64,000 bases of DNA from an uncultured Candidatus Saccharibacteria bacterium (lineage in GTDB: Bacteria > Patescibacteriota > Minisyncoccia > GCA-002772825): positions 36,202 to 100,201 of the forward strand of contig CAZLLR010000001.1 in the NCBI GenBank assembly GCA_964560655.1, given 5' to 3'. A program made the translations under genes and the position numbers. How positions within the stretch are numbered: position 1 is the first letter of the stretch; each line of letters begins with the position of its first letter. Positions 8,707-63,976 of the stretch are shown here, piece by piece. Below the pieces are notes generated by a model that saw only the letters and a list, made by a program, of their open reading frames with translations, was not told where the DNA came from and did not search any database.

Positions 8707-10065
8707 TTATATATTACCGAAGTCACCTTTTTCTATGCTAGAGAAACTTACTTTCTTTTCGTTGAAGTATAACTCTACATTTCCAGTAGGGCCATTTCTG
8801 TGCTTCTCTACCATAATCTGAGCGATATTTTTTTTCTCAGTCTCTCGGTATTTATCTTCACGATATATAAACATTACGACATCAGCATCTTGCTCTATAG
8901 ACCCTGAGTCTCGTAAATCAGAAAGACGAGGTATACCGCCACGTTGCTCTACAGATCTTGAGAGTTGAGAGAGTGCAAGTACGGGCACGTCGAGCTCACG
9001 AGCAAGCTGTTTTAGAGAACGAGAGATCTCAGTAATCTGTTGGACCATAGAGTCTGTGTGCTTACGGGGAGACATAAGCTGGAGGTAGTCTACAATAATA
9101 AGCCCTAAGCCGTGCTGACTCTGCATCCTCCTTGCGGCAGATCGCATCTTGATAATATTGTTTGAAGCGTCATCATCTATGAAGATAGGCGCTTTTGAAA
9201 GTCTGTCCATGGCGTCACGTATTCTTGCAAATTCGTCTTCTCCAGTAAGGCGCCCTGTCCTAAGCTTCCAAGAGTCCACATGCGCCTCTGAGGCAAGCAT
9301 GCGGTCAGCTAGCTGACCGACACTCATTTCAAGAGAAAAAATACCTACCGGGATATTATGCTTAATAGCTGTACCCCTTGCTATATCAAGAGCAAGGGAT
9401 GTCTTTCCGTGAGAGGGCCTGGCAGCAAGTATCACGAGGTCTGATTTCTGAAGGCCGGCAAGTAGGTTATCAAGTTCATGAAAGCCAGTCGGTATTCCAC
9501 GTATCTCATCTGTAGATTTATTTAAATTATCGATCCTTTCCCATGCTTCACCTAGAGCATCTCCTATAGCGACGAAATTCTTATTATTGGAAGTTTGGGA
9601 AATATCAAAAATACTCTTTTCAGCCTGATCAAGTAATATGTCTATATCTTCATTTTCATCATACCCAAACCCTGATATTTGGTGAGAAGCGCCTATAAGG
9701 TCGCGAAGGATTCTCTTCCTGTGGACTATCTCTGCATAATATTTAGCGTTTGAAGCGGAAGGCACAGAATTAACGAGTTCTGTGAGGTAGCTGTTACCAC
9801 CCACTTCGTCCAAAACCTTCTGCTCTTTGAGTCTATTAGAGACAGATAGAAAATCTATAGGGTCATGATTGTGAAAAAGCTCAAATATCGTCTTATAGAT
9901 AATCCTATTTTTATCGTGGTAGAAATCACCTTCTTCTATAAGATCTACCACTTCATGCATCGCTTCAGTATCAAGCATTATAGAGCCGAGTACGGATTTC
10001 TCCGCATCAAGGCTATGAGGTGGAATGCGAACGAGACCTGACTGAGCATTAACTTCATTTGTCAT
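8707..10065 (-). CDS. dnaB: replicative DNA helicase DnaB
   Basis: DnaB N-terminal domain plus RecA-like domain with Walker A GKTSLAL. About 450 aa and no intein. Confidence 0.9.
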   Translation of the reverse strand: MTNEVNAQSGLVRIPPHSLDAEKSVLGSIMLDTEAMHEVVDLIEEGDFYHDKNRIIYKTIFELFHNHDPIDFLSVSNRLKEQKVLDEVGGNSYLTELVNSVPSASNAKYYAEIVHRKRILRDLIGASHQISGFGYDENEDIDILLDQAEKSIFDISQTSNNKNFVAIGDALGEAWERIDNLNKSTDEIRGIPTGFHELDNLLAGLQKSDLVILAARPSHGKTSLALDIARGTAIKHNIPVGIFSLEMSVGQLADRMLASEAHVDSWKLRTGRLTGEDEFARIRDAMDRLSKAPIFIDDDASNNIIKMRSAARRMQSQHGLGLIIVDYLQLMSPRKHTDSMVQQITEISRSLKQLARELDVPVLALSQLSRSVEQRGGIPRLSDLRDSGSIEQDADVVMFIYREDKYRETEKKNIAQIMVEKHRNGPTGNVELYFNEKKVSFSSIEKGDFGNI

Positions 10066-30466: not shown

Positions 30467-31102
30467 TCACCCCGAACCCTCTCTGTAATACTTATATCTA
30501 ATAGGATTCTTCTTATAATAATTTTGATGGTATTCTTCAGCTAACCAAAATGCTCCAGCCTTCTCAATACTCGTTGATATAGGTTTATCAAAGATTTTTC
30601 TTTCTTCAACTTGTTTTATTACTCCTTCTGCAATAGATTTCTCTTCATCTGTCTGGTAATAGACTGCTGAAGTATATTGATATCCACGATCGTAGAATGA
30701 CCCTTCATTATCCGTCGGGTCAGTATGCTTTAATAGATACAAAACAAGATCATGGTAATTAGTCTTAGTAGGATCATAGGTTACCTTAATCATCTCTCTG
30801 TGTCCGGTGTCGCCGGAAGAGACTTGATTATAACTCGGCTCTTCTACACCACCCCCCATATACCCAGATACAACATCTATAACTTCAGGTAATTTTTCAT
30901 AATCACTTTCAGTACACCAGAAGCAACCACCAGCAAAGTAAGCAACAGCTTCTCCCTTATTTGTAGTCGAAGTATCGATATTACTAGGCGCTGTTTTGCC
31001 TTTATACCAGCCGTAACCCCAAATACTTACCACTAGTATCCCTATAAGGACGATTATAAAAAATAGTTTAATCATATGTCTTGTCATTATAACACTACAC
31101 AC
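30467..31102 (-). CDS. msrA: peptide-methionine (S)-S-oxide reductase MsrA, membrane-anchored
   Basis: GGCFWC active-site motif. N-terminal TM helix (IKLFFIIVLIGILVVSIWGY). Stop is a TGA at plus-coordinates 30467-30469. Confidence 0.8.
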   Translation of the reverse strand: MCSVIMTRHMIKLFFIIVLIGILVVSIWGYGWYKGKTAPSNIDTSTTNKGEAVAYFAGGCFWCTESDYEKLPEVIDVVSGYMGGGVEEPSYNQVSSGDTGHREMIKVTYDPTKTNYHDLVLYLLKHTDPTDNEGSFYDRGYQYTSAVYYQTDEEKSIAEGVIKQVEERKIFDKPISTSIEKAGAFWLAEEYHQNYYKKNPIRYKYYREGSG

Positions 31103-35979: not shown

Positions 35980-37163
35980 AAATTGCTATCTTTTCTGACA
36001 ACTTTTATCCTGAAATAAGCGGGATAGCAGACTCTATCATCTCTTTAGCCAAAGAGCTAGACAAACGCGGATATAAAATAGATTTTTATGTTCCTTGGTA
36101 TTCTTTAAAAAATTATAAAAAAATAAACGCCATAAAAAAAGAAGTTAACACGAGTGAAAATATAAATGTCATCAGGTTTCTATCTTTGCCATTTCCGGCA
36201 GGGACACAACAAGCTCGCTTAGTAATTCCTTCTTTTTGGCGTTGGCTCTACATATGGAAGAATAGGCCTGATATTATCTTCAGTCAGTTAGTATTTGGAG
36301 TGGGACTCGAAGGATTAATCTCTTCAAAGATATTAAATATTCCTATGGTAGGCACCAATCACACAGCTATAACAGAATTTGTAAAATATAGCCCCCTTAA
36401 GGCAAGGTGGTTTAGCAATTTTATGCTTCGATATATATCTTGGTATTATAATCACTGCAGATTCGTAACGGGGCCGTCTCAATCAATCCTTACAGAGATG
36501 GAGGAAAACGGCCTCAAATCTCCCCACAAGGTTGTATCCAACCCTATAGATACAGAAGATTTTTCTCCGATCAATGAAGACTCTGCCCAAAAATTAAAAA
36601 AAAGGTTTAATTTCTCTGATAATACTCTTATCTTTGCTGGAAGATTAGCAATAGAGAAGGATATCGATGTCCTTATCCGCGCAATAATATTAGTGAAAAA
36701 GGAGATTCCCGAAATTAGTCTAGCTTTAGCCGGGCATGGACAAGACGAGATGCGATTGAAAAAATTAGCCAAAGATCTTGATGTAGAAGACAATGTCAAC
36801 TTCTTAGGCACACTTAATAAACCAACGCTTGCAAAAGCCTTCCAAGCCTCAGAAATATTCGTCACTGCTAGTACATCTGAAACACAAGGGATGACCATTC
36901 TCCAAGCGATGGCCTGCGGTAAACCCGTTATAGGTGTTAGGGCAAGGGCACTGCCGGAATATATTAACTGCGACAATAATGGGATATTAGTTAACCCTGG
37001 AGAACATCAAGCATTAGCGAAAAATATAATAATACTATTGAATAATAAAGAAAAGAGAGTAAAATTAGGAAAAGAGGGCAGAAAAACTGCTGAGAATTTT
37101 TCAGCAAGCAATATAGCCTCAGTATGGGAGAATATATTTAAACAACAACTAAAAAAATCATGA
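35976..37163 (+). CDS. glycosyltransferase family 4 (GT-B)
   Basis: C-terminal E-x7-E-like motif ETQGMTILQAMACGKPVIG. Overlaps neighbouring genes by 4 nt, so probably an operon. Confidence 0.8.
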   Translation: MKIAIFSDNFYPEISGIADSIISLAKELDKRGYKIDFYVPWYSLKNYKKINAIKKEVNTSENINVIRFLSLPFPAGTQQARLVIPSFWRWLYIWKNRPDIIFSQLVFGVGLEGLISSKILNIPMVGTNHTAITEFVKYSPLKARWFSNFMLRYISWYYNHCRFVTGPSQSILTEMEENGLKSPHKVVSNPIDTEDFSPINEDSAQKLKKRFNFSDNTLIFAGRLAIEKDIDVLIRAIILVKKEIPEISLALAGHGQDEMRLKKLAKDLDVEDNVNFLGTLNKPTLAKAFQASEIFVTASTSETQGMTILQAMACGKPVIGVRARALPEYINCDNNGILVNPGEHQALAKNIIILLNNKEKRVKLGKEGRKTAENFSASNIASVWENIFKQQLKKS

Positions 37164-38800: not shown

Positions 38801-39880
38801 ATGTTTTATCTAATCAAAAAAATATTTAAATATTTACTAATTTTTTTAGGTGTTATTATCATCCTTATTTTTATAAGGAGATTAAATGGCGATTCTCAAT
38901 TTACAGACAATATATTACCGGAAAATAAACAAATCTCTATAGACTCAGGAGATTACTCCTTTGTTATAATGCACCAAGGAATTGAAAGAAAATATCTCGT
39001 CCATGTTCCCTTAAACTACAATGAGACAAACTCTATTCCTGCAATTATCATCTTACATGGAGGAGGAGGAAATATGGAAGAATCTATAAAATATTTTAAT
39101 CTTAATCCAAAGGCTGATAAAGAAGGATTCTTAGCTATATATCCTGAAGGATATGGTAAAGATTTAGATGGTAAGCACCTAGGGACGTGGAATGCAGGAA
39201 AATGTTGTGCTCCTGCAACAGATAAAAATATTGATGATGTAGGTTTTATAGATAAAGTAATAGAAAAAGTAAAAAAAGACTTTCATATCGATGGAAATAG
39301 GATCTACTCTGTTGGTTTTTCTAATGGAGCTCAAATGTCATACAGGCTAGGATGTGAACTATCTAATAAGATAGCAGCTGTAGTCCTAGGTGGATCGGTA
39401 GGAACATTTGAGGGGTGTTCACCCTCAAGGCCTATTCCTACATATATGTTTAGTGGCACAGAAGATGGATGCACCCCGTATGAAGGTGGGGAAGCATGTG
39501 GTGGTTGCGTAGGAAGATTTTTTAATTCTATCGGAATATCTATAGATGAAAATATTTATCAATGTAGTTCAGTAGATGCTTTTACTACCAAAATAGCAAC
39601 AAAAAATAATTGTTTAAAAGAACCTTCTATTACATACGACAAAGATAGTACAACTTGCGTCACATATAGTTCTTGCACAAATAATGCTGAAGTAACTTCT
39701 TGTAAAATTTCAGGTGGTGGACATGTATGGCCAGGTAAAGATCAATACAGTTTAGATATTTGCAGCAAAAGACCTAATGGGTATGTCTGCAATCAGTGGA
39801 AAAAAGCACTGGGCCCATTAATCACAGATTTCAATGTTAATGATCAAATCTGGAAATTCCTCAAAAAATATAAATTATAA
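38801..39880 (+). CDS. secreted alpha/beta-hydrolase esterase (PHB-depolymerase/LpqC-like), Cys-rich C-terminus
   Basis: Signal/TM anchor, IILHGGGG oxyanion region, GFSNGA nucleophile elbow. Confidence 0.6.
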   Translation: MFYLIKKIFKYLLIFLGVIIILIFIRRLNGDSQFTDNILPENKQISIDSGDYSFVIMHQGIERKYLVHVPLNYNETNSIPAIIILHGGGGNMEESIKYFNLNPKADKEGFLAIYPEGYGKDLDGKHLGTWNAGKCCAPATDKNIDDVGFIDKVIEKVKKDFHIDGNRIYSVGFSNGAQMSYRLGCELSNKIAAVVLGGSVGTFEGCSPSRPIPTYMFSGTEDGCTPYEGGEACGGCVGRFFNSIGISIDENIYQCSSVDAFTTKIATKNNCLKEPSITYDKDSTTCVTYSSCTNNAEVTSCKISGGGHVWPGKDQYSLDICSKRPNGYVCNQWKKALGPLITDFNVNDQIWKFLKKYKL

Positions 39881-40123
39881 TAAATCTTAATTTTTCTTAT
39901 ATTTACTATTGTTAATGTTTTAGGTACGCACTTATATCACTTTTAATCCTGATATTTCGTTCGGAGTTTTTTCATCTAAGCCATTTAGGCTAACCTCTTA
40001 AATGGCTTTTTATTTGATTCAATAAATATCAGTAACATTATTTATTATCACTCGTCTTTTTATATAGAAAGGTATATTAATAAGCCTTTTTACTATATAT
40101 TTTAATAAATTTGGATAAATACA

Positions 40124-41389
40124 ATGAAGAATGAAGAATATACAATAAAAAATATATCGTTTGAAACTCCAAGGGTTATAGACTTAGAGCTAGTTAAAAA
40201 TAATTTAAGTCCTGTATTTAACTATCAGCCAGGTCAATACGCTATGATAGCTTATAGGAAAAATGGTGTTAGGACGTCTTGGCATCCTTTTACCATAGCA
40301 AGCTCTCCTTCAGAAAGGGGCTCATTAAAGTTTGGAATTAAAACTTTTGGTAAATTCACACAAAGACTCTCTCAACTCTCAGCTGGAGATACAATTTATA
40401 TAAAAGGACCTTATGGGAATTTCACCTTTGACGAAAACGCTTATGAGAAGCGTGTATTCATAGCAGGTGGTATAGGTATCACCCCCTTCTTAAGCGCTCT
40501 TAAATATGCAAACGACAACGATTTTAAAAGTAAGATGACCCTAATATACACAACCCAATCACTTACTGACCTAGCCTTCGTGGAGGATATAAAAAAACTT
40601 GAAAAAGAAAATGATAATTTTACAGCTCATTTTGTAATAAAAAATGTAGATAACAAAGAAAAGTTACAGCCAAACATGCAATGCGGAAGGGTAGATATAG
40701 GAATGCTTCATTCTATCCTTGGTCCAGATGTTAAAGATAGCCTTTTCTTGCTTTGTGGGCCAACTCCTTTTATGAAAGCAATGCAAGGTAACTTAAAAGT
40801 CCTCGGTGCTCCAAGCAGAAAGATAAAATTTGAATCATTTGCCACAAATTCAATCTCTATAAAGGCAAATTATAAGATTTTCATACCTGCACTTGGCGTA
40901 TCAGCACTACTCTTATTTTTCGCCTTAAACTCTATCTCCTTAGCCGCAGAAAAGAAATTTATAGCCAAAAAAGTGCAAGAATCTCCATCTCTGTTAGTAG
41001 AAAATCAAAACACGGCAAATACAATAAACTCAGATCTTCAAAGCAGAGAGAAAATATTTATAATAAATGACAAAATCATCTCAAGGATGACAAGACTTCT
41101 AAATGAAAAAGAAGCGAAAATAATCGAGCTAAACAAAAAAAGATTAGCTCTACTAGAAGAAAGGACTACTATAAATGCCCTAAATCTACCCGTTGCGACA
41201 AAAAATCCGACGACACCTCCTGTCTCAAGCCCAACTCCTAAGCCAGCGCCCACCATAATAAGAAGAGTCGTTACTAAGTCCGTTCAAGCTACACCGCCAC
41301 TCATTGTAAAAACTCCACCACCAGTAGTGCCTATCATAAAAATTCCACCACCAGCTCCTACACCAACTCCAAGAACAACCGTATCATAA
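40124..41389 (+). CDS. FNR-like FAD/NAD(P)H oxidoreductase domain with C-terminal TM helix and coiled-coil / Pro-Thr-rich tail
   Basis: RxxS FAD motif (HPFTIASSP), GGIGITP NAD(P)-binding, CGPxxF C-terminal motif. Then a TM segment, a coiled coil, and a PTPKPAP...PPPAPTPTP tail. Confidence 0.7.
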   Translation: MKNEEYTIKNISFETPRVIDLELVKNNLSPVFNYQPGQYAMIAYRKNGVRTSWHPFTIASSPSERGSLKFGIKTFGKFTQRLSQLSAGDTIYIKGPYGNFTFDENAYEKRVFIAGGIGITPFLSALKYANDNDFKSKMTLIYTTQSLTDLAFVEDIKKLEKENDNFTAHFVIKNVDNKEKLQPNMQCGRVDIGMLHSILGPDVKDSLFLLCGPTPFMKAMQGNLKVLGAPSRKIKFESFATNSISIKANYKIFIPALGVSALLLFFALNSISLAAEKKFIAKKVQESPSLLVENQNTANTINSDLQSREKIFIINDKIISRMTRLLNEKEAKIIELNKKRLALLEERTTINALNLPVATKNPTTPPVSSPTPKPAPTIIRRVVTKSVQATPPLIVKTPPPVVPIIKIPPPAPTPTPRTTVS

Positions 41390-41417
41390 GATTATTATTA
41401 ACTTTATAAAAAATAAA

Positions 41418-41942
41418 ATGAAAAATAAATTTAAAAAATCAACTAAAGTGTTATTATTATCTCTAATAGTGATTATAGGACTATTCTCTATAGGGTCTAT
41501 AGTAGTAAGAGCAGATGACCATGAAGATGATGGGTATGAATACTCAAAAGAATATAAAGATGGTAAACGTGAAGAAGAAAAAGAGAATAAGGTTCACTAC
41601 AAAGAGGAGGCTGCACCAGAATATTTAGAGACAGTATCTGCTGAACAAATGCAATTTCCTGTTGCACCTCCAGAACCAAAAGAAATCATAACCTATGAAG
41701 AAATAGTTGGGGAAATAATAGAAGAACCGCAACTAATCGAAGAAGAAAAGCCTATTGTAAAAACAAAAGTACAAGATATTCCTGATCAGCTCCTAGACTC
41801 AGACAATGACGGCGTGCCTGATTCTTTAGACCAACACCCTGGTGAAGATGATCTAATCTATGCAGTAAAAGATGTAAACGAAGATGGTATAACCGATGAT
41901 TTCGCATATTTGGCAAATAGCATATATGGAAATATTCGATAG
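41418..41942 (+). CDS. secreted acidic protein with TSP3-like Ca2+-binding repeat (DSDNDGVPDSLD)
   Basis: Signal peptide/TM anchor and an extremely acidic composition. Confidence 0.5.
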   Translation: MKNKFKKSTKVLLLSLIVIIGLFSIGSIVVRADDHEDDGYEYSKEYKDGKREEEKENKVHYKEEAAPEYLETVSAEQMQFPVAPPEPKEIITYEEIVGEIIEEPQLIEEEKPIVKTKVQDIPDQLLDSDNDGVPDSLDQHPGEDDLIYAVKDVNEDGITDDFAYLANSIYGNIR

Positions 41943-42879
41943 TATAAAGACGTTAGGAACAGATTTCACCGTTCTTATCGTCTCAGAAGACAAAGTGGAA
42001 ACAAAAAAGGATATCCAAGAAATTTGTAATCTTGCAATTTTATTTGATGAACATTTTAGTCGTTTTCGAAGCGACAGCGAGCTGACTAAACTAAATGATT
42101 CAGCAGGAGGTAATTTTATAGCAAGCGATGAGCTGATTGATATACTTAATAAAGCTCAAAGATTTCACAAGCTCACTGGTGGAATCTTTGACCCAACTAT
42201 ATTAGAAGCGCTTGAACAAATTGGGTATAAAGAGAGTTTTAATATATTGAGTAATAATAATGACCCTGATACACAATTAGATACGGATGAGATGATAAAT
42301 ACTTTCTTTGATAGGCCACCTTTCTCAATATCCATTATAGATAAAAACACAAACTTAATATCTACACCTAAGAGACTTAAGATCGATCTTGGTGGATTAG
42401 GAAAAGGATATCTACTAGATTTACTGGCAAAAAAACTTAAAGAAAAATATAATAATTTCTGGATATCTGCCGGTGGTGATATGATCTTACATGGGAAAGA
42501 TAATCTATCAGGTATTTGGCATGTAGGAGTGCAAAATCCGATAAAGCATAGAGAGGATTTATTAAAGATACGTGTCCTTGGAGATAGCTTATCGATAGCC
42601 ACTTCTGGAACAACCAAAAGAAGGGGAATTAAAAATGGATTCTCTTGGCATCATATAATAGACCCTAGGACAGGCCTACCAGTAAATAATGACGTACTAG
42701 CCGTCACGGTTATAGCTAAAAATGCGCTTGAGGCTGATATCTTAGCAAAGACAATCTTAATAATGGGAAAAGAAGAAGGGATTAACTTTATAAATAAGTT
42801 GCCTGAAGTTGAATGCCTGATGATAGACAAACAAATGCACTTCACTTTTTCCAAGCAGATGAAAAATTATATAATTTGA
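41926..42879 (+). CDS. apbE: FAD:protein FMN transferase ApbE
   Basis: ApbE-family blocks (GGIFDPTILEA, IDLGGLGKGYLLD, SAGGDMILHG). Start preferred at the ATG at 41926 (MEIFDS); overlaps the previous gene by 17 nt. Confidence 0.75.
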   Translation: MEIFDSIKTLGTDFTVLIVSEDKVETKKDIQEICNLAILFDEHFSRFRSDSELTKLNDSAGGNFIASDELIDILNKAQRFHKLTGGIFDPTILEALEQIGYKESFNILSNNNDPDTQLDTDEMINTFFDRPPFSISIIDKNTNLISTPKRLKIDLGGLGKGYLLDLLAKKLKEKYNNFWISAGGDMILHGKDNLSGIWHVGVQNPIKHREDLLKIRVLGDSLSIATSGTTKRRGIKNGFSWHHIIDPRTGLPVNNDVLAVTVIAKNALEADILAKTILIMGKEEGINFINKLPEVECLMIDKQMHFTFSKQMKNYII

Positions 42880-42914
42880 TTAATATAAATAAAAAAAGAT
42901 TAATTCTAATATTT

Positions 42915-43757
42915 ATGGCAATATTATTTGCTATATTTTTGATACCATCTTTTTCTGTAAATGCCTTTGAGTCACTTTATAAGTTCTCTCCTCCAAAAGA
43001 TAGCGACTTTGATGGGTTGACTGACCAAGCTGAAATACAAAAATTTCATACAAACCCCCTTGAAGCAGACACTGATAAAGATGGCTTTATAGATGGAGCT
43101 GAAGTGCTCTCAAATACAGACCCTAACAACGCTAGTGACCCTAAAGACACTTTCTCTCTGGTAGATTATGAAGAGTACACACAAAATTACCAAAAAGTCG
43201 TTAGCCTAACTCAATCAAAGTTTTCTGCTTCGTGGCCATGGTATATATCAAGGTCATCTGGGATCATCGCCTACATATTACTTTTTCTCATCATCGTATC
43301 TGGCATAGGGATAAAAACAGGCTTCATTTACAAAATCACAAACCCAGACTTGTCATGGGTTATACATAGGAATATAGGTATTATTATGTCTATATCCATA
43401 ATAATTCATTTTGTCTCTCTTATGTTTGATGAGTACATTAAATTCACTGTGTTAAATGTTTTATCTCCTTTTGCTCCAAAAGTAGGTGGGATCTATCTTA
43501 GTATTGGAATTATCAGCTTCTATATAATTATAGCGGCTATTGTCACATCATTTTTTTACCAACAAAAATACCCTAGGTTATGGCAAGTTGTGCATTACCT
43601 GCCATATCCAACTTTCATATTAATATTTCTTCACGGCATAATGATGGGAAGTGATTCAAACACTCTTATAATGCAAACTGTATATTGGTCTACAGGGATA
43701 AGTTTTGTGTTACTACTCGTTTATAGGATCTCTTATATCTTCAAACCAGCAAAATAA
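42915..43757 (+). CDS. ferric-reductase-domain (MsrQ/NOX-type) bis-heme membrane protein with extracellular TSP3-like Ca2+-binding N-terminal region
   Basis: Signal peptide. DSDFDGLTD and DTDKDGFIDGAE repeats. His pairs spaced 13 and 12 apart in two TM helices (HRNIGIIMSISIIIH, HYLPYPTFILIFLH). ORF-track start 42813 overlaps apbE, so the ATG at 42915 is preferred. Confidence 0.6.
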   Translation: MAILFAIFLIPSFSVNAFESLYKFSPPKDSDFDGLTDQAEIQKFHTNPLEADTDKDGFIDGAEVLSNTDPNNASDPKDTFSLVDYEEYTQNYQKVVSLTQSKFSASWPWYISRSSGIIAYILLFLIIVSGIGIKTGFIYKITNPDLSWVIHRNIGIIMSISIIIHFVSLMFDEYIKFTVLNVLSPFAPKVGGIYLSIGIISFYIIIAAIVTSFFYQQKYPRLWQVVHYLPYPTFILIFLHGIMMGSDSNTLIMQTVYWSTGISFVLLLVYRISYIFKPAK

Positions 43758-43800
43758 TTCTCTTATTCCTTATATAGGAATTACTCACAAATTTACTTAA

Positions 43801-43840
43801 ACGAACGACTCATCCTCTAATTAGAGGATGAGTCGTTCGT
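43801..43840. repeat. 40-nt perfect palindrome ACGAACGACTCATCCTCTAA|TTAGAGGATGAGTCGTTCGT
   Basis: Exact inverted repeat between the 42915 gene and the cspA promoter region. No T-run on either side. Confidence 0.55.
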
Positions 43841-43969
43841 CTTGCTTGACTTTTTAATTGTATTATGCTTCAATAGACATATCAAATCGAGTCTGTAAGA
43901 GGAACGAAGTCGGGTTTTTATCGTACAGTATTTTAGGTTTGAACTTTATTCGCACTAGTTTTTCTTACA

Positions 43970-44170
43970 ATGAATCAAGGAACTATAGCTCGTCTCACAG
44001 ATCGTGGATTTGGCTTCATAGCTCAAGAGGGAGAGGAAAAAGATGTTTTCTTTCACGCAAATGAGTTAAAGAATGCCAGCTTCGACGAACTTCGTGAAGG
44101 CGACAAAGTAACATTTGACACAGCAGAGGGTCCTAAGGGAGTCAATGCTGTTAATGTAAACAAGGCGTAA
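43970..44170 (+). CDS. cspA: cold-shock protein (CspA family)
   Basis: RNP1/RNP2 motifs (GFGFI, VFFHA). 66 aa. Confidence 0.9.
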   Translation: MNQGTIARLTDRGFGFIAQEGEEKDVFFHANELKNASFDELREGDKVTFDTAEGPKGVNAVNVNKA

Positions 44171-44177
44171 TTACGCT

Positions 44178-44215
44178 TTAACAAAAACATCCCGCCCTGC
44201 GGGGTGTTTTTGTTA
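44178..44215 (+). terminator. rho-independent terminator (AACAAAAACATCCCGC-CCT-GCGGGGTGTTTTTGTT)
   Basis: Long imperfect hairpin with T-run after csp. Confidence 0.65.
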
Positions 44216-61520: not shown

Positions 61521-62847
61521 TTTTAAGGCGCTTAATAGATTCTTCTTTACCTAAAACTTCACTTAAGGTAAAAGGGTCTGGTGACTTTTCTTTGCCGGAT
61601 AAAGCGACACGGTATGGCCACAAGACATTGCCTCTACCCTCTTTTTCAGCATAAACCCAGACAAGACCCTTAATAATTTCTTTATTAAAATCACTCTCTT
61701 TAATGTCGTACAATATATTGACAATATATTCTAAATGTGACTTTGTTTTATTTATATCTTTCTCATTTTTCCAATTCAATATATCTTTTTTATACTCAGG
61801 CACTTGAAAAAAATAACCTACCGAATCCTTAATATCGCTAAATTTTTCAATCCTTTCGACTTCAAGTGCTACGATATTATTCCACAACTTAGGTTTGTCT
61901 GTTGCTTCTTTCTTAAAATCATCAGGTAAAAACTCGAATAATAATTTTCCCAATATATCAAGGGGGACATTTCTAACATATTGCTTGTTTATCCAATTTA
62001 GTTTATCAATATTAAAAACTGCTCCGCTTTTCTGAACTTTTTCTATATCAAATTTTTTTACTAGCTCATCGAGGTAAAAAACTTCTTCATTTGTACCTTC
62101 CCTCCCCTGAGGAGACCAACCAAGCAATGCCAAGAAGTTTAGCATCGCCTCAGGGATATAGCCTTCTTTTTTATATTTATTCACTGATACAACCCCATGA
62201 CGCTTAGAAAGCTTAGATTTATCTGGAGCCAATATAAGTGGGATATGGGCATATATAGGCCTAGGGGCGCCTATGGCCTCTTGTATGAGTATTTGGCGCG
62301 GTGTGTTAGAAATACCATCATCTCCACGGATAACATGAGTTATTCCCATTTCGAAGTCATCTACCGCCACCGCCAAGTGATAGAGTGGACTCTCCATATC
62401 TCTTGCCACAACAAAGTCTCCTAACTCAGTTGTATCAAATTCTATTTCTCCTCTAATCAGATCGTCAAATTTTATCTTTATATTAGGATTCTTGAATCTT
62501 ATGACTTCACTCCTTTGCCCTTCTTCCTTGGGCTCTTCTTTGGATAAGTAAGCACTTCCTTCCCCCACCATCTTCTTAAGATATTTTTTATATATATCCA
62601 ACCTCTCAGACTGACGATATAGTTCGTCATGCTTTATGCCAAGCCAATCAAGACCCTCTATTATGTCTCTTTCATATTCTACCTTAGACCTTACTGGGTC
62701 TGTATCTTCAATCCTAAGTATCATTTTACCTCCATTTTGTTTTGTAAAAAGATAATTAAAGAGTGCTGTTCTGGCACTCCCAAGATGCACCGGACCAGTC
62801 GGGCTTGGGGCAAAACGAGTTACTACTTTTTTATTTTTATTAGGCAT
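61501..62847 (-). CDS. gltX: glutamate--tRNA ligase
   Basis: HIGH-like PSPTGPVHLGSARTA and KLSKRHG. Confidence 0.9.
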   Translation of the reverse strand: MPNKNKKVVTRFAPSPTGPVHLGSARTALFNYLFTKQNGGKMILRIEDTDPVRSKVEYERDIIEGLDWLGIKHDELYRQSERLDIYKKYLKKMVGEGSAYLSKEEPKEEGQRSEVIRFKNPNIKIKFDDLIRGEIEFDTTELGDFVVARDMESPLYHLAVAVDDFEMGITHVIRGDDGISNTPRQILIQEAIGAPRPIYAHIPLILAPDKSKLSKRHGVVSVNKYKKEGYIPEAMLNFLALLGWSPQGREGTNEEVFYLDELVKKFDIEKVQKSGAVFNIDKLNWINKQYVRNVPLDILGKLLFEFLPDDFKKEATDKPKLWNNIVALEVERIEKFSDIKDSVGYFFQVPEYKKDILNWKNEKDINKTKSHLEYIVNILYDIKESDFNKEIIKGLVWVYAEKEGRGNVLWPYRVALSGKEKSPDPFTLSEVLGKEESIKRLKNAIEKI

Positions 62848-63976
62848 GCTCTAAAGCTAAGTTAATTATCTCTCTTGCAATCTGATGGCCGGCTTCCGGC
62901 TTATAAAATTGATTGGCCTTGCTCTTTATATCTTCTAAAGAATTTTTTTGGGACAATATTCTATTTATCTCAGAAAGTAATATGTGAGGAGAGAGATTTC
63001 TTTCTTCAATCACTTCAGAGGCGCCTGTCCTTGCAAAAGCATAAGCATTTTCTCTTTGATGGTCTTGTGCAGAATTAGAAAGTGGAATAAGTATACTAGG
63101 TTTTCCCCAAGCGGCAATTTCAAATATAGCTGATGAGCCTGCTCGCGATATCACTATATTTGAAGCGGCAGCGGCCATTTTCATCGCTGATTCATTTAGG
63201 AAACCGAAAACACGATACCTATTTTTAAATGGGGATTTCTCAAGAGAGACATTTACCCTTCCTTGCACCTCTTTAAAATTATTCTTCCCACACTGATGTA
63301 TAATTTGATATTTATCAACCAGCTCACTTGCCATATCTACAATAACATCATTTATCCTCTGTGAACCTTGTGATCCACCTAATATAAAGATAACTGGCAA
63401 ATTTTTATCAAGCTGGAGAAATTCACTAAAACCCTCTTTAGGAAGATGCACGAGATCTTTACGGACAGGATTTCCTACGACAGCTATTTTTTTTCTCGAT
63501 TTTTCTGGGAAATAACTTACTGACTCAGGGAAAGAAACTGCTATCCTCTTAGCAAATTTTGAGGCCCATTTATTAACCCTGCCAGGTACAGTGTCAGACT
63601 CGTGTATAACAACAGGAATTCTAAAAAATCTCGCCGCAAAAAGTACAGGGAAACTTGCATAGCCTCCTTTTCCGAACACGACATCTGGAAAATCGTTATA
63701 GACTGTCCACAACGCCCTTAATGCTCCAAGAAATATCTTAATAACATCTGTTATGTTAAGAAGTGAAAAATAACGACGAATCTTCCCTGATGTCACCTTC
63801 TTAAATTTAATCTCTTTCTCACTAAGTAATCTTTTATTATAAGGTTTGTCAGACATATAGATAAGCTTAGTATTCATAAGCTTATCTTCATCTATTATAT
63901 TGTTTAATTCTTCGGCAACAGCTATAAGCGGGTAAAAATGACCGCCAGTCCCGCCACCAGTTAGAATAATCTTCAT
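62840..63976 (-). CDS. murG: UDP-N-acetylglucosamine--N-acetylmuramyl-(pentapeptide) pyrophosphoryl-undecaprenol GlcNAc transferase MurG
   Basis: G-loop GGGTGGHFYP and GT28 C-terminal domain. Confidence 0.85.
   Translation of the reverse strand: MKIILTGGGTGGHFYPLIAVAEELNNIIDEDKLMNTKLIYMSDKPYNKRLLSEKEIKFKKVTSGKIRRYFSLLNITDVIKIFLGALRALWTVYNDFPDVVFGKGGYASFPVLFAARFFRIPVVIHESDTVPGRVNKWASKFAKRIAVSFPESVSYFPEKSRKKIAVVGNPVRKDLVHLPKEGFSEFLQLDKNLPVIFILGGSQGSQRINDVIVDMASELVDKYQIIHQCGKNNFKEVQGRVNVSLEKSPFKNRYRVFGFLNESAMKMAAAASNIVISRAGSSAIFEIAAWGKPSILIPLSNSAQDHQRENAYAFARTGASEVIEERNLSPHILLSEINRILSQKNSLEDIKSKANQFYKPEAGHQIAREIINLALEHA

Follow-up and report, generated by a model that had tools for sequence, protein, structure and literature searches.

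We describe here a four-gene operon at positions 40124-43757 of a 64,000-nucleotide stretch of DNA (the window: positions 36,202 to 100,201 of contig CAZLLR010000001.1, GenBank assembly GCA_964560655.1) from an uncultured Candidatus Saccharibacteria bacterium. As judged from its sequence, the operon probably encodes a membrane redox cassette that is conserved across Patescibacteria and would carry electrons from NAD(P)H through FAD and hemes to an acceptor on the outer face of the membrane. The products are a dehydrogenase (DH) with a membrane anchor and a long tail (gene 1), a secreted acidic protein (gene 2), an ApbE-family FAD:protein FMN transferase (gene 3) and a membrane protein with a ferric-reductase domain (FRD; gene 4). 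The core mechanism is inferred from homology, and functional statements that go beyond domain identity are inferences.

Dehydrogenase and ferric-reductase domains on two polypeptides

Gene 1 (40124-41389, 421 aa) starts with a predicted cytoplasmic DH domain of the NOX/FNR type that would bind FAD and NAD(P)H (residues 1-245, 40124-40858, + strand; Pfam and motifs). The Pfam families FAD_binding_6/8 and NAD_binding_1 span residues 10-221, with E-values of 1.3e-14 for NAD_binding_1, 1.1e-10 for FAD_binding_8 and 1.3e-10 for FAD_binding_6. The motif HPFTI fits the FAD filter H[PSA]F[TS][LIMV] proposed for NADPH oxidases (NOX) by Hajjar et al. 2017, and GIGITP fits the NOX filter for the NADPH motif, which was found in 17 of the 17 DH modules examined. 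By sequence, the best solved relatives are the b5 reductase 2eix (7e-20) and SpNOX (8qq5/8qt6, ~1e-18), followed by csNOX5, NOX5, DUOX1 and NOX2.

The DH domain is followed by a single transmembrane (TM) anchor at residues ~250-275 (40871-40948, + strand; Kyte-Doolittle peak of 2.05 at residues 252-270), which starts ~12 residues past the C-terminal aromatic motif of the domain, FESF. In the FNR/NOX-type DH superfamily a C-terminal aromatic residue stacks on the flavin, so a domain tethered by this end should keep its flavin side facing the membrane. Beyond the anchor lies a predicted extracytoplasmic stalk (residues 276-421, 40949-41389, + strand) made of a charged helical region and then a Pro/Thr-rich extended region. 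Pfam, hydropathy and composition agree with the first-pass annotation of this DNA, in which gene 1 was an FNR-like FAD/NAD(P)H domain followed by a TM helix and an extracytoplasmic Pro/Thr-rich tail.

Gene 4 (42876-43757, + strand) encodes a signal peptide (VNA|FE), TSP3_bac repeats and a five-helix FRD. Both of its recognizable parts, an FRD and the TSP3-like N-terminal ectodomain that had been proposed for it, score above their cut-offs: Ferric_reduct (PF01794) with 34.2 bits against 28, and two TSP3_bac (PF18884) stretches at ~42996-43133 with 41.2 bits against a gathering threshold of 25 (E 1.4e-10). Two His pairs, H-x13-H and H-x12-H (codons at 43365/43407 and 43593/43632), correspond to the NOX pattern of His-X12/14-His in separate TM helices (Hajjar et al. 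2017). The conservation of these presumptive heme ligands had been set beforehand as a test of the assignment, and the four histidines are kept across homologues: all four are invariant in 22 homologues and at least 90% conserved in 44 unique family members, and the 13/12 spacing is found in 43 of 43 FRD ORFs. MsrQ and STEAP proteins hold one heme and a cytosolic flavin, with Arg replacing an inner-heme His, while NOX, DUOX and FRE proteins have four His and two hemes (PMC12525009). Since all four His are retained, the gene 4 FRD is by its sequence of the two-heme NOX/FRE type and not of the MsrQ type. The same conservation ruled out an FMN in place of the inner heme, as in MsrQ/STEAP.

Natural fusions of the two domains were found in the gene 4 homologue search (P0011-P0023, ~500-520 aa), with TSP3, Ferric_reduct and FAD/NAD-binding domains in one chain. 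In the genomes of this fused type, the stalk part is a separate gene directly upstream, and its product is TM-anchored, with KPRTTVS at the end of a Pro-rich tail. The DH domain hence alternates between the FRD C-terminus and the stalk N-terminus across loci; this is classic fusion evidence by which DH, FRD and stalk would work together. In a Foldseek search, the best PDB match of the fused P0018 model was full-length SpNOX (8qta, E 4.9e-20, TM-score 0.64; 404 aligned columns, target of 399 residues).

A NOX with FRD and DH spread over two polypeptides, as the first-pass annotation had it, is therefore a well supported reading: natural fusions exist and a fused model matches full-length SpNOX. 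The cassette departs from SpNOX (PDB 8qq7, 8qt6, 8qta; Hajjar et al. 2017, PMC5676040) in several respects. SpNOX is a single chain, whereas the DH of the window cassette is separate and tethered by its own C-terminal TM helix; the SpNOX-type FRD has six helices, whereas gene 4 has a cleavable signal peptide, five helices and a TSP3 ectodomain; and SpNOX lacks the ApbE, stalk and acidic proteins, all three of which are present here. The single-chain form occurs only in relatives such as P0018. Because the proteins pass the three sequence filters but fail the single-chain, six-helix NOX architecture, we regard them as a two-protein system that would work like NOX and is not a strict member of the NOX family.

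Operon layout

The four ORFs of the block lie in a row on the + strand, as first annotated; they are tightly coupled, and their GC content (~34%) is similar to that of the surrounding sequence. Genes 1 and 2 are 28 nt apart. The start of gene 3 is placed at ATG 41926, which overlaps the 3' end of gene 2 by 17 nt and replaces a start at 41896. Gene 4 most likely begins at TTG 42876; this codon and the stop of ApbE share the sequence TTGA (the related locus L001 is arranged likewise), and the start yields a normal signal peptide, MININKKRLILIF...SVNA|FE. Terminator-like hairpins mark both operon boundaries: a 12-bp stem followed by a T-run at the 5' end (39978-40008, + strand), and a near-perfect inverted repeat at the 3' end (approximately 43800-43843, + strand). 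Since the genes overlap or adjoin and lie between these two hairpins, we read them, from their packing, as one putative transcription unit. No riboswitch was found by an Rfam scan of 39600-44200, which gave only sub-threshold hairpin matches, and a consensus promoter scan returned 19 sites versus 18.4 expected.

Just upstream, a secreted Cys-rich esterase of the PHB-depolymerase family is encoded at 38801-39880. It has an NCBIfam match to extracellular short-chain-length PHA depolymerase (E 8e-38, below the cut-off), and the 5' hairpin closes its gene and separates it from the operon.

Distribution and gene content across Patescibacteria

Relatives with 75% and 46% identity have the genes in the same order, as do ~40 further loci, which argues against a chance juxtaposition. 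Co-occurrence of the four genes was another test set in advance, and they recur together in relatives. The loci were collected by a scan of one genome per species with a 12-sequence FRD alignment, which returned 39 loci with a full-length relative; contig look-ups added further ones. Altogether ~49 distinct loci were annotated with HMMs built for the purpose, 42 of them found through the FRD and seven others. Loci L058-L063 were left out of the DH frequency because they had been retrieved through DH homologues and cannot inform it. Records with a lineage label belong to Patescibacteria (Saccharibacteria, Azam-, Moran-, Magasanik-, Gracili- and Peregrinibacteria) or are apparent mis-binnings; the others carry no lineage.

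ApbE, FRD and stalk form the constant core of the cassette. Almost all loci share the order acidic protein, ApbE, TSP3/FRD, and a stalk protein, either free or bearing the DH, lies directly upstream in every locus; where the locus is of the fused type or lacks the DH, the stalk module has a gene of its own. The presence of a tail on gene 1 had been noted in the first-pass annotation, which missed that this tail is a separate and universally conserved component. Six minimal variants (L035, L054, L055, L058, L059 and L062) consist of DH-stalk, ApbE, an FRD without TSP3 and a small Ig-like protein (Big_14, sub-threshold), and L063 is a related form without the Ig-like gene. The acidic protein is absent in seven of these seven minimal variants.

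A TM-anchored protein with a conserved N-x-C-P-x-E-P motif, a second Cys and a sub-threshold Big_14 match is encoded after the FRD gene in nine loci (L002:8861-9361, L004:8437-8940, L007:4258-4728, L035:8561-9073, L054:2816-3271, L055:4594-5091, L058:8860-9711, L059:5813-6454 and L062:6790-7404). It is present in six of the seven clusters without TSP3 and acidic protein, and may be an alternative outer-face partner. In the Moranbacteria-type DH-less loci L018, L021, L029, L031, L034, L037-L039, L041 and L042, a conserved 233-aa CxxxCxxC protein and a ~700-aa protein are encoded ~2-4 kb upstream of the cassette. The pair may be a radical-SAM activase and an anaerobic ribonucleotide reductase, to judge by its appearance, and possibly reflects lineage synteny only.

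Stalk proteins and their conserved tip

The stalk proteins matched no Pfam family. The gene 1 tail contains 26% Pro and 24% Thr plus Ser and ends in PRTTVS (41369-41386). A C-terminal T-[TKR]-x-S-COOH closes the stalk proteins of nearly all loci; among the 1784 ORFs of at least 80 aa in the cassette loci, this ending was found in 47, almost all of which are stalk proteins. In a larger, independent set of gene 1 homologues, 101 of 118 have the DH-TM-tail layout, and their tails fall into several classes by their ends. The most frequent is P-x-T-[TRK]-x-S (n=56), followed by a two-Cys loop, C-T-T-[ST]-x-S-G-[VI]-x-T-C-x or CQTTPSGRCI (n=28), and by R-x-R-x with poly-Asp (n=9); the endings PTTGVSRAR and KTTASIPPP also occur. 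The element common to the classes is a T-T-x(1-2)-S core placed distally on the Pro-rich stalk. This tip would be extracytoplasmic, because the DH can be fused to the stalk N-terminus and because a pair of Cys marks one of the tip classes.

One Cys-loop tip reads T[ST][AQ]SGVT, which is near the canonical flavinylation motif. As a candidate near-canonical site it is weakened by the variation of its Thr within the class.

The tail of the DH-stalk protein in a Falkowbacteria locus (L063, 5001-6968) is ~260 residues long, with an abundance of Ala, Thr, Pro and Ser; its end, SRSRSNDDDDD, places it in the poly-Asp class. A second, small and separate stalk protein follows, ending in QPTTKVS; the acidic protein is absent and the FRD lacks TSP3. 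This arrangement suggests that the cassette modules are interchangeable.

The secreted acidic protein

Gene 2 (41418-41942, + strand) encodes a secreted protein of 174 aa with a predicted signal-peptide cleavage at VRA|DD. Asp and Glu make up 29% of the protein, which carries the loops DSDNDGVPDSLD and KDVNEDGITDD, and its C-terminal part is a double Ca-loop module, DSDNDGVPDSLDQHPGEDDLIYAVKDVNEDGITDD (~41790-41912). The first-pass annotation had taken it for a thrombospondin-type-3 protein. A secreted acidic protein with Ca-type loops it is, but the likeness to TSP3 stays at the level of motifs: gene 2 has no Pfam match and only a weak thrombospondin-type match in NCBIfam (E 0.009), not one of the 21 family members searched gave a TSP3_bac (PF18884) match with E up to 1, and in an hhalign comparison of the gene 2 family with the FRD ectodomain the signal peptides alone aligned. 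On these grounds no homology to TSP3_bac is detectable in gene 2. A search of 1.84 billion proteins found 65 representatives of the family, nearly all of 76-250 aa and with no recurring Pfam family; the acidic proteins contain 15-44% Asp plus Glu.

TSP3 on the FRD and a gene for the acidic protein are both present in ~38 loci and both missing in seven, with no discordant locus. As they are always gained or lost together, the TSP3 ectodomain and the acidic protein probably act as a pair. The FRD of L022, L027 and L033 carries the acidic protein as an N-terminal fusion.

A leaderless ApbE

Gene 3 (41926-42879, + strand) encodes a leaderless, predicted cytoplasmic ApbE-family FAD:protein FMN transferase. 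PF02424 matches at full length (profile positions 1-266 of 266, 197.5 bits versus a cut-off of 25.6, E 4e-58), and the closest solved relative is Vibrio cholerae ApbE (6nxi, 1.6e-29). The catalytic His, Asp and Ser of 6nxi, 7esa and 4ifu have their aligned counterparts in the segments WHHIIDP, EAD and ATSG; the catalytic residues described for ApbE are H257 in V. cholerae (H273 in FmnB) and, in FmnB, D301 and S257 (PMC12052999, PMC8906456).

The identity of gene 3 as ApbE, proposed in the first-pass annotation, is borne out by these matches, but the extracytoplasmic flavinylating role assigned to it there is not. By inspection of N-terminal hydropathy and sequence, a signal peptide or lipobox is absent from the ApbE of all ~49 loci. 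The ApbE domain begins at about residue 10, with no room for a leader upstream in L001, L002, L004-L006 and others, and many loci have an in-frame stop just upstream of the ORF. The 120 closest homologues are 280-340 aa long and consist of the ApbE domain only, with a hydrophobic N-terminus in none of the 120. Since an export signal is absent, the enzyme most likely works in the cytoplasm, as predicted from these sequences. An exported fusion of gene 2 with ApbE by frameshift or readthrough was considered and rejected: frames and spacings differ between loci, the upstream open frames are GAT/GAA-rich sequence, and no fusion of ~450 aa was found among the 120 ApbE homologues, nor any among the 65 gene 2 relatives.

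A second peculiarity concerns the D-x-L-[AS]-T motif, in which gene 3 has Lys for the conserved Thr (ADILAKT, window 42739-42759). Lys occupies this position in 120 of the 120 closest homologues and in ~41 of 44 cluster ApbEs; the Saccharibacteria-type cluster ApbEs have Thr or Ser, and the solved ApbEs compared have Thr. In nucleotide complexes of Listeria FmnB, the corresponding Thr305 contacts Mg2+ and phosphate (PMC8906456). Lys versus Thr/Ser co-varies with the class of the stalk tip, although confounded by phylogeny (Saccharibacteria versus the rest), and this co-variation hints at a relationship between ApbE and stalk.

A search for the target of the enzyme, likewise set in advance, came out negative for the known types. 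Neither in the cassette nor elsewhere among the window ORFs of at least 90 aa did FMN_bind match at E up to 0.1, and a regular-expression search for Dxx[ST]GA[ST] found none in the same ORFs; a bare [ST]GA[ST] occurs once, in an unrelated ORF (62840-63976). The relaxed pattern [ST]G[AVSG][ST] gave only non-conserved matches in the Saccharibacteria-type clusters. Thr135 of gene 4, at the predicted cytoplasmic end of FRD helix 1, was considered for flavinylation and rejected, since its conservation, complete in 22 sequences, drops below 90% in 44. T211 and S212 of gene 4 belong to a TS motif that we take to be general to FRDs.

In L007 (2441-4261), two ORFs of 117 and 169 aa stand in place of a single ApbE gene, and TSP3 and FRD, joined in gene 4, are likewise encoded by separate ORFs. 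The locus is either a decaying cassette or affected by assembly frameshifts.

Relation to known flavinylation systems

The nearest described counterparts are the MsrQ-like flavinylation clusters of Meheust et al. 2021 (eLife, PMC8238504), found mainly in Actinobacteria, which combine apbE with a gene for an FMN-binding protein and one for a PF01794 protein, the latter often extended by a C-terminal PF00175 domain. The path proposed for them leads from NAD(P)H via hemes to an extracytosolic acceptor (PMC8238504). By the operational definition of that study (PMC8238504), the window cassette belongs to this group, with the PF01794 gene 4 directly adjoining the PF02424 gene 3. It differs in that its DH acts in trans, while MsrQ-like clusters carry the NAD-binding domain on the FRD C-terminus; in that it lacks an FMN_bind domain or canonical motif, while those clusters typically include an FMN-binding protein; and in that its ApbE, leaderless and of the Lys type, does not fit the extracytosolic-ApbE part of their description. 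The stalk and acidic protein families fill the accessory positions. The cassette is thus best placed among these NOX-like, flavinylation-associated clusters as a variant of the MsrQ-like kind.

The FmnB/PplA system of Listeria monocytogenes is alike in that a monoderm encodes an ApbE homologue (FmnB, 7esa) together with an apparatus for electron transfer at the membrane, and the two share the concept of a tethered surface flavin carrier. In Listeria, electrons cross the membrane via Ndh2, quinone and EetA/B, not through a heme FRD. FmnB is an exported lipoprotein with D-G-L-S-T at the metal/phosphate site (PMC8906456), whereas the window ApbE is leaderless, and PplA has canonical FMN_bind domains, of which the cassette has none. 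Cytosolic ApbEs have precedent, serving soluble enzymes with a canonical FMN_bind domain (PMC12052999). The cytoplasmic ApbE of Klebsiella pneumoniae, which matures a fumarate reductase, and the ApbE domains of trypanosomatid fumarate reductases are leaderless like the window enzyme (PMC12052999). Their substrates are soluble enzymes with canonical FMN_bind and Dxx[ST]GA[ST] (PMC12052999), and the cassette encodes no such substrate.

Proposed mechanism and alternatives

In the proposed mechanism, cytoplasmic NAD(P)H would reduce FAD in the gene 1 DH domain, which the TM helix right after the FAD-stacking C-terminal motif would keep against the membrane. Electrons would then pass from FAD to the inner b-heme and the outer b-heme of the gene 4 FRD and on to an outer-face acceptor, for which O2, Fe(III) and a tethered flavin are candidates. 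The net result would be the catalytic core of an NADPH oxidase built from two polypeptides. On the outer face, the TSP3 Ca-binding ectodomain of gene 4, the secreted acidic Ca-loop protein of gene 2 and the Pro/Thr-rich stalk of gene 1 would be displayed, and the conserved T-T-x-S stalk tip appears the most plausible site of docking or modification. ApbE may attach FMN at a non-canonical site on a cassette protein; the leading candidate acceptor is the stalk tip, with topology (ApbE inside, tip outside) as the main objection. The likely role of the cassette is the re-oxidation of NAD(P)H in a fermentative cell without a respiratory chain.

Several observations weigh against this mechanism in whole or in part. 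Of the 42 FRD-anchored loci, 17 contain the DH, and ~23, mostly of the Moranbacteria type, lack it over a distance of 8 kb; possibly NAD(P)H is not the donor in every case, or the DH-less genomes encode their DH at another site. Both AF2 models are of moderate confidence (pLDDT ~73; 73 for P0018), and a Foldseek search with the FRD alone was not significant (E 0.16). The topology rests on hydropathy, charge distribution and domain logic. Heme loading is assumed, because heme synthesis is not known from Patescibacteria. As to the flavin step, the canonical ApbE target is absent from the cassette, the predicted topology places the stalk tip outside the cell and ApbE inside, and the Thr of the SGVT tip varies (SGVK, SGVR and SGVV are also found).

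One way in which the redox cassette could operate is extracellular electron transfer by a tethered flavin: ApbE would put FMN on the T-T-x-S tip, and the stalk would carry the flavin across the wall, replacing the FMN-binding protein of actinobacterial MsrQ-like clusters or PplA of Listeria. We consider this unlikely as a whole, though it has points in its favor. The stalk gene sits where the FMN-binding gene sits in described MsrQ-like clusters (PMC8238504). The tip motif is the best conserved feature of a low-complexity stalk and accompanies ApbE even in minimal clusters; in L035, however, ApbE is kept and the tip motif is absent. The tip class T[ST][AQ]SGVT would come close to the canonical motif, in which D-to-A and A-to-V changes are tolerated experimentally (PMC12052999), but the variable Thr speaks against it. 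The co-variation of the ApbE Lys or Thr/Ser with tip class points the same way as these features, yet it is confounded by phylogeny. Against all of them stands an ApbE without export signal facing a tip that is extracytoplasmic by the DH on the stalk N-terminus and by the Cys pair of one class.

A more specific form of this idea, which we put forward as a tentative and rather doubtful proposal, is that the Lys-type leaderless ApbE represents a new mode of flavinylation, with FMN on the T-T-x-S tip of a disordered stalk acting as a wall-spanning carrier fed by the split NOX. FMN would in that case be added either in the cytoplasm before export of the tail or once export has taken place along some unrecognised route.

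Alternatively, the outer heme could reduce O2 directly, as in SpNOX and the eukaryotic NOX enzymes, so that the cassette would be a superoxide-generating NADPH oxidase serving host interaction or as an electron sink, with the surface proteins as accessories. SpNOX is the closest solved relative across both domains, and the window proteins jointly pass all three published NOX sequence filters (PMC5676040); the fused relatives, on the other hand, fail the strict FAD motif with HHFSF or HYFSF. In a Saccharibacteria metagenome-assembled genome (GCA_030645135.1; L058:482-9711), the cassette lies directly downstream, on the same strand, of a heme-copper oxidase operon (COX2, COX1, COX3, COX4_pro and a UbiA-type heme O synthase). 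This adjacency, seen in one locus only, suggests an oxic lifestyle, and the cassette of that locus could supply or share electrons or heme with the terminal oxidase. Many host genomes, however, come from groundwater by record title (e.g. NC_groundwater), and groundwater sites are often anoxic. Hajjar et al. also warn that bacterial NOX-like proteins may use other acceptors (PMC5676040), and a plain oxidase leaves the conserved ApbE, stalk and acidic protein unexplained. A superoxide-generating enzyme is likewise an unlikely outcome.

The outer heme might instead reduce Fe(III) captured by the acidic protein and the Ca/TSP3 loops, in an assimilatory or dissimilatory ferric reductase. Ferric reductases of the FRE and STEAP types belong to the FRD family, a link to iron uptake via VIT1 has been drawn for MsrQ-like clusters (PMC8238504), and 15-44% of the acidic protein is Asp plus Glu. 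In a Saccharibacteria-type locus (L059), a Fur-family regulator (9330-9740) is encoded with a glutaredoxin and a rhodanese ~3-5 kb downstream of the cassette, a weak hint of iron or redox regulation that is confined to this single locus. Neither VIT1 nor FeoB was found in or beside the cassette in the window and among the called genes of loci with Pfam listings. The DxDxDG loops are moreover Ca-type and not Fe-type sites, and we hold a ferric reductase to be quite improbable.

It is also doubtful that ApbE is merely a co-located housekeeping enzyme with its real substrate elsewhere in the genome, such as an NQR/RNF-like system of some genomes of the Candidate Phyla Radiation (CPR). The absence of a canonical target from the cassette would fit this, and NQR/RNF-like flavinylation clusters have been reported in CPR (PMC8238504). 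But ApbE adjoins the FRD in all ~49 loci, across divergent lineages and rearrangements, and stays even where L027 and L033 are reordered. Nor would a leaderless enzyme be better able to reach extracytoplasmic NqrB/RnfD or FMN_bind targets: NqrB and RnfD are flavinylated outside the cytoplasm. The same holds for the FMN-binding domain (PMC8238504).

The first-pass annotation had pointed to a Fre-MsrQ-like system feeding an envelope methionine sulfoxide reductase, which now appears very improbable. The two-polypeptide layout does recall E. coli Fre-MsrQ(-MsrP), in which an FRD membrane protein and an FNR-superfamily reductase are separate proteins (PMC5676040). In the strict sense, the MsrQ analogy fails, as MsrQ has one heme and a non-covalent FMN, with Arg77 replacing an inner-heme His (PMC12525009), whereas gene 4 has the four His of a two-heme NOX-type FRD; the soluble Fre takes flavin as a substrate, while the DH of gene 1 sits on a membrane anchor and has FAD motifs of the NOX type; and the E. 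coli system has an MsrP partner, whereas the operon has none. By Pfam, neither an MsrP-type molybdoenzyme nor an iron transporter was found among the neighbours within ~10 kb. A membrane-anchored Msr is indeed encoded 9 kb away (30467-31102, - strand; Pfam and TM, probably extracytoplasmic), but it is MsrA (PF01625 only, without an MsrB domain) and not the MsrAB first named, and it has no apparent link to the cassette, lying on the other strand and being absent from the syntenic flanks of L001 and L002. As a thiol enzyme, MsrA is also not known to accept electrons from hemes.

Implications for Patescibacteria

Patescibacteria (CPR) are tiny-celled and usually described as fermentative symbionts without electron-transport chains. 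A NOX-type transmembrane cassette across many CPR classes would be among their few membrane redox devices, and it prompts questions about the source of its heme and flavin, the identity of its external acceptor and its use in host interaction or redox balancing. CPR were described as strikingly under-represented for extracytosolic flavinylation (PMC8238504), and our literature search found no paper joining Patescibacteria to ApbE or to ferric reductase. The cassette is also a natural experiment in NOX modularity, in which the DH domain has moved between two partner proteins.

Genomes with orphan apbE genes imply unidentified ApbE substrates (PMC8238504). With an orphan ApbE whose substrate is no known flavinylated domain, the cassette makes the question of ApbE substrates testable with four small genes. 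If the new mode of flavinylation proposed above is true, Patescibacteria would gain a heme- and flavin-based extracellular electron outlet, which has gone unnoticed because its accessory parts match no known domain.

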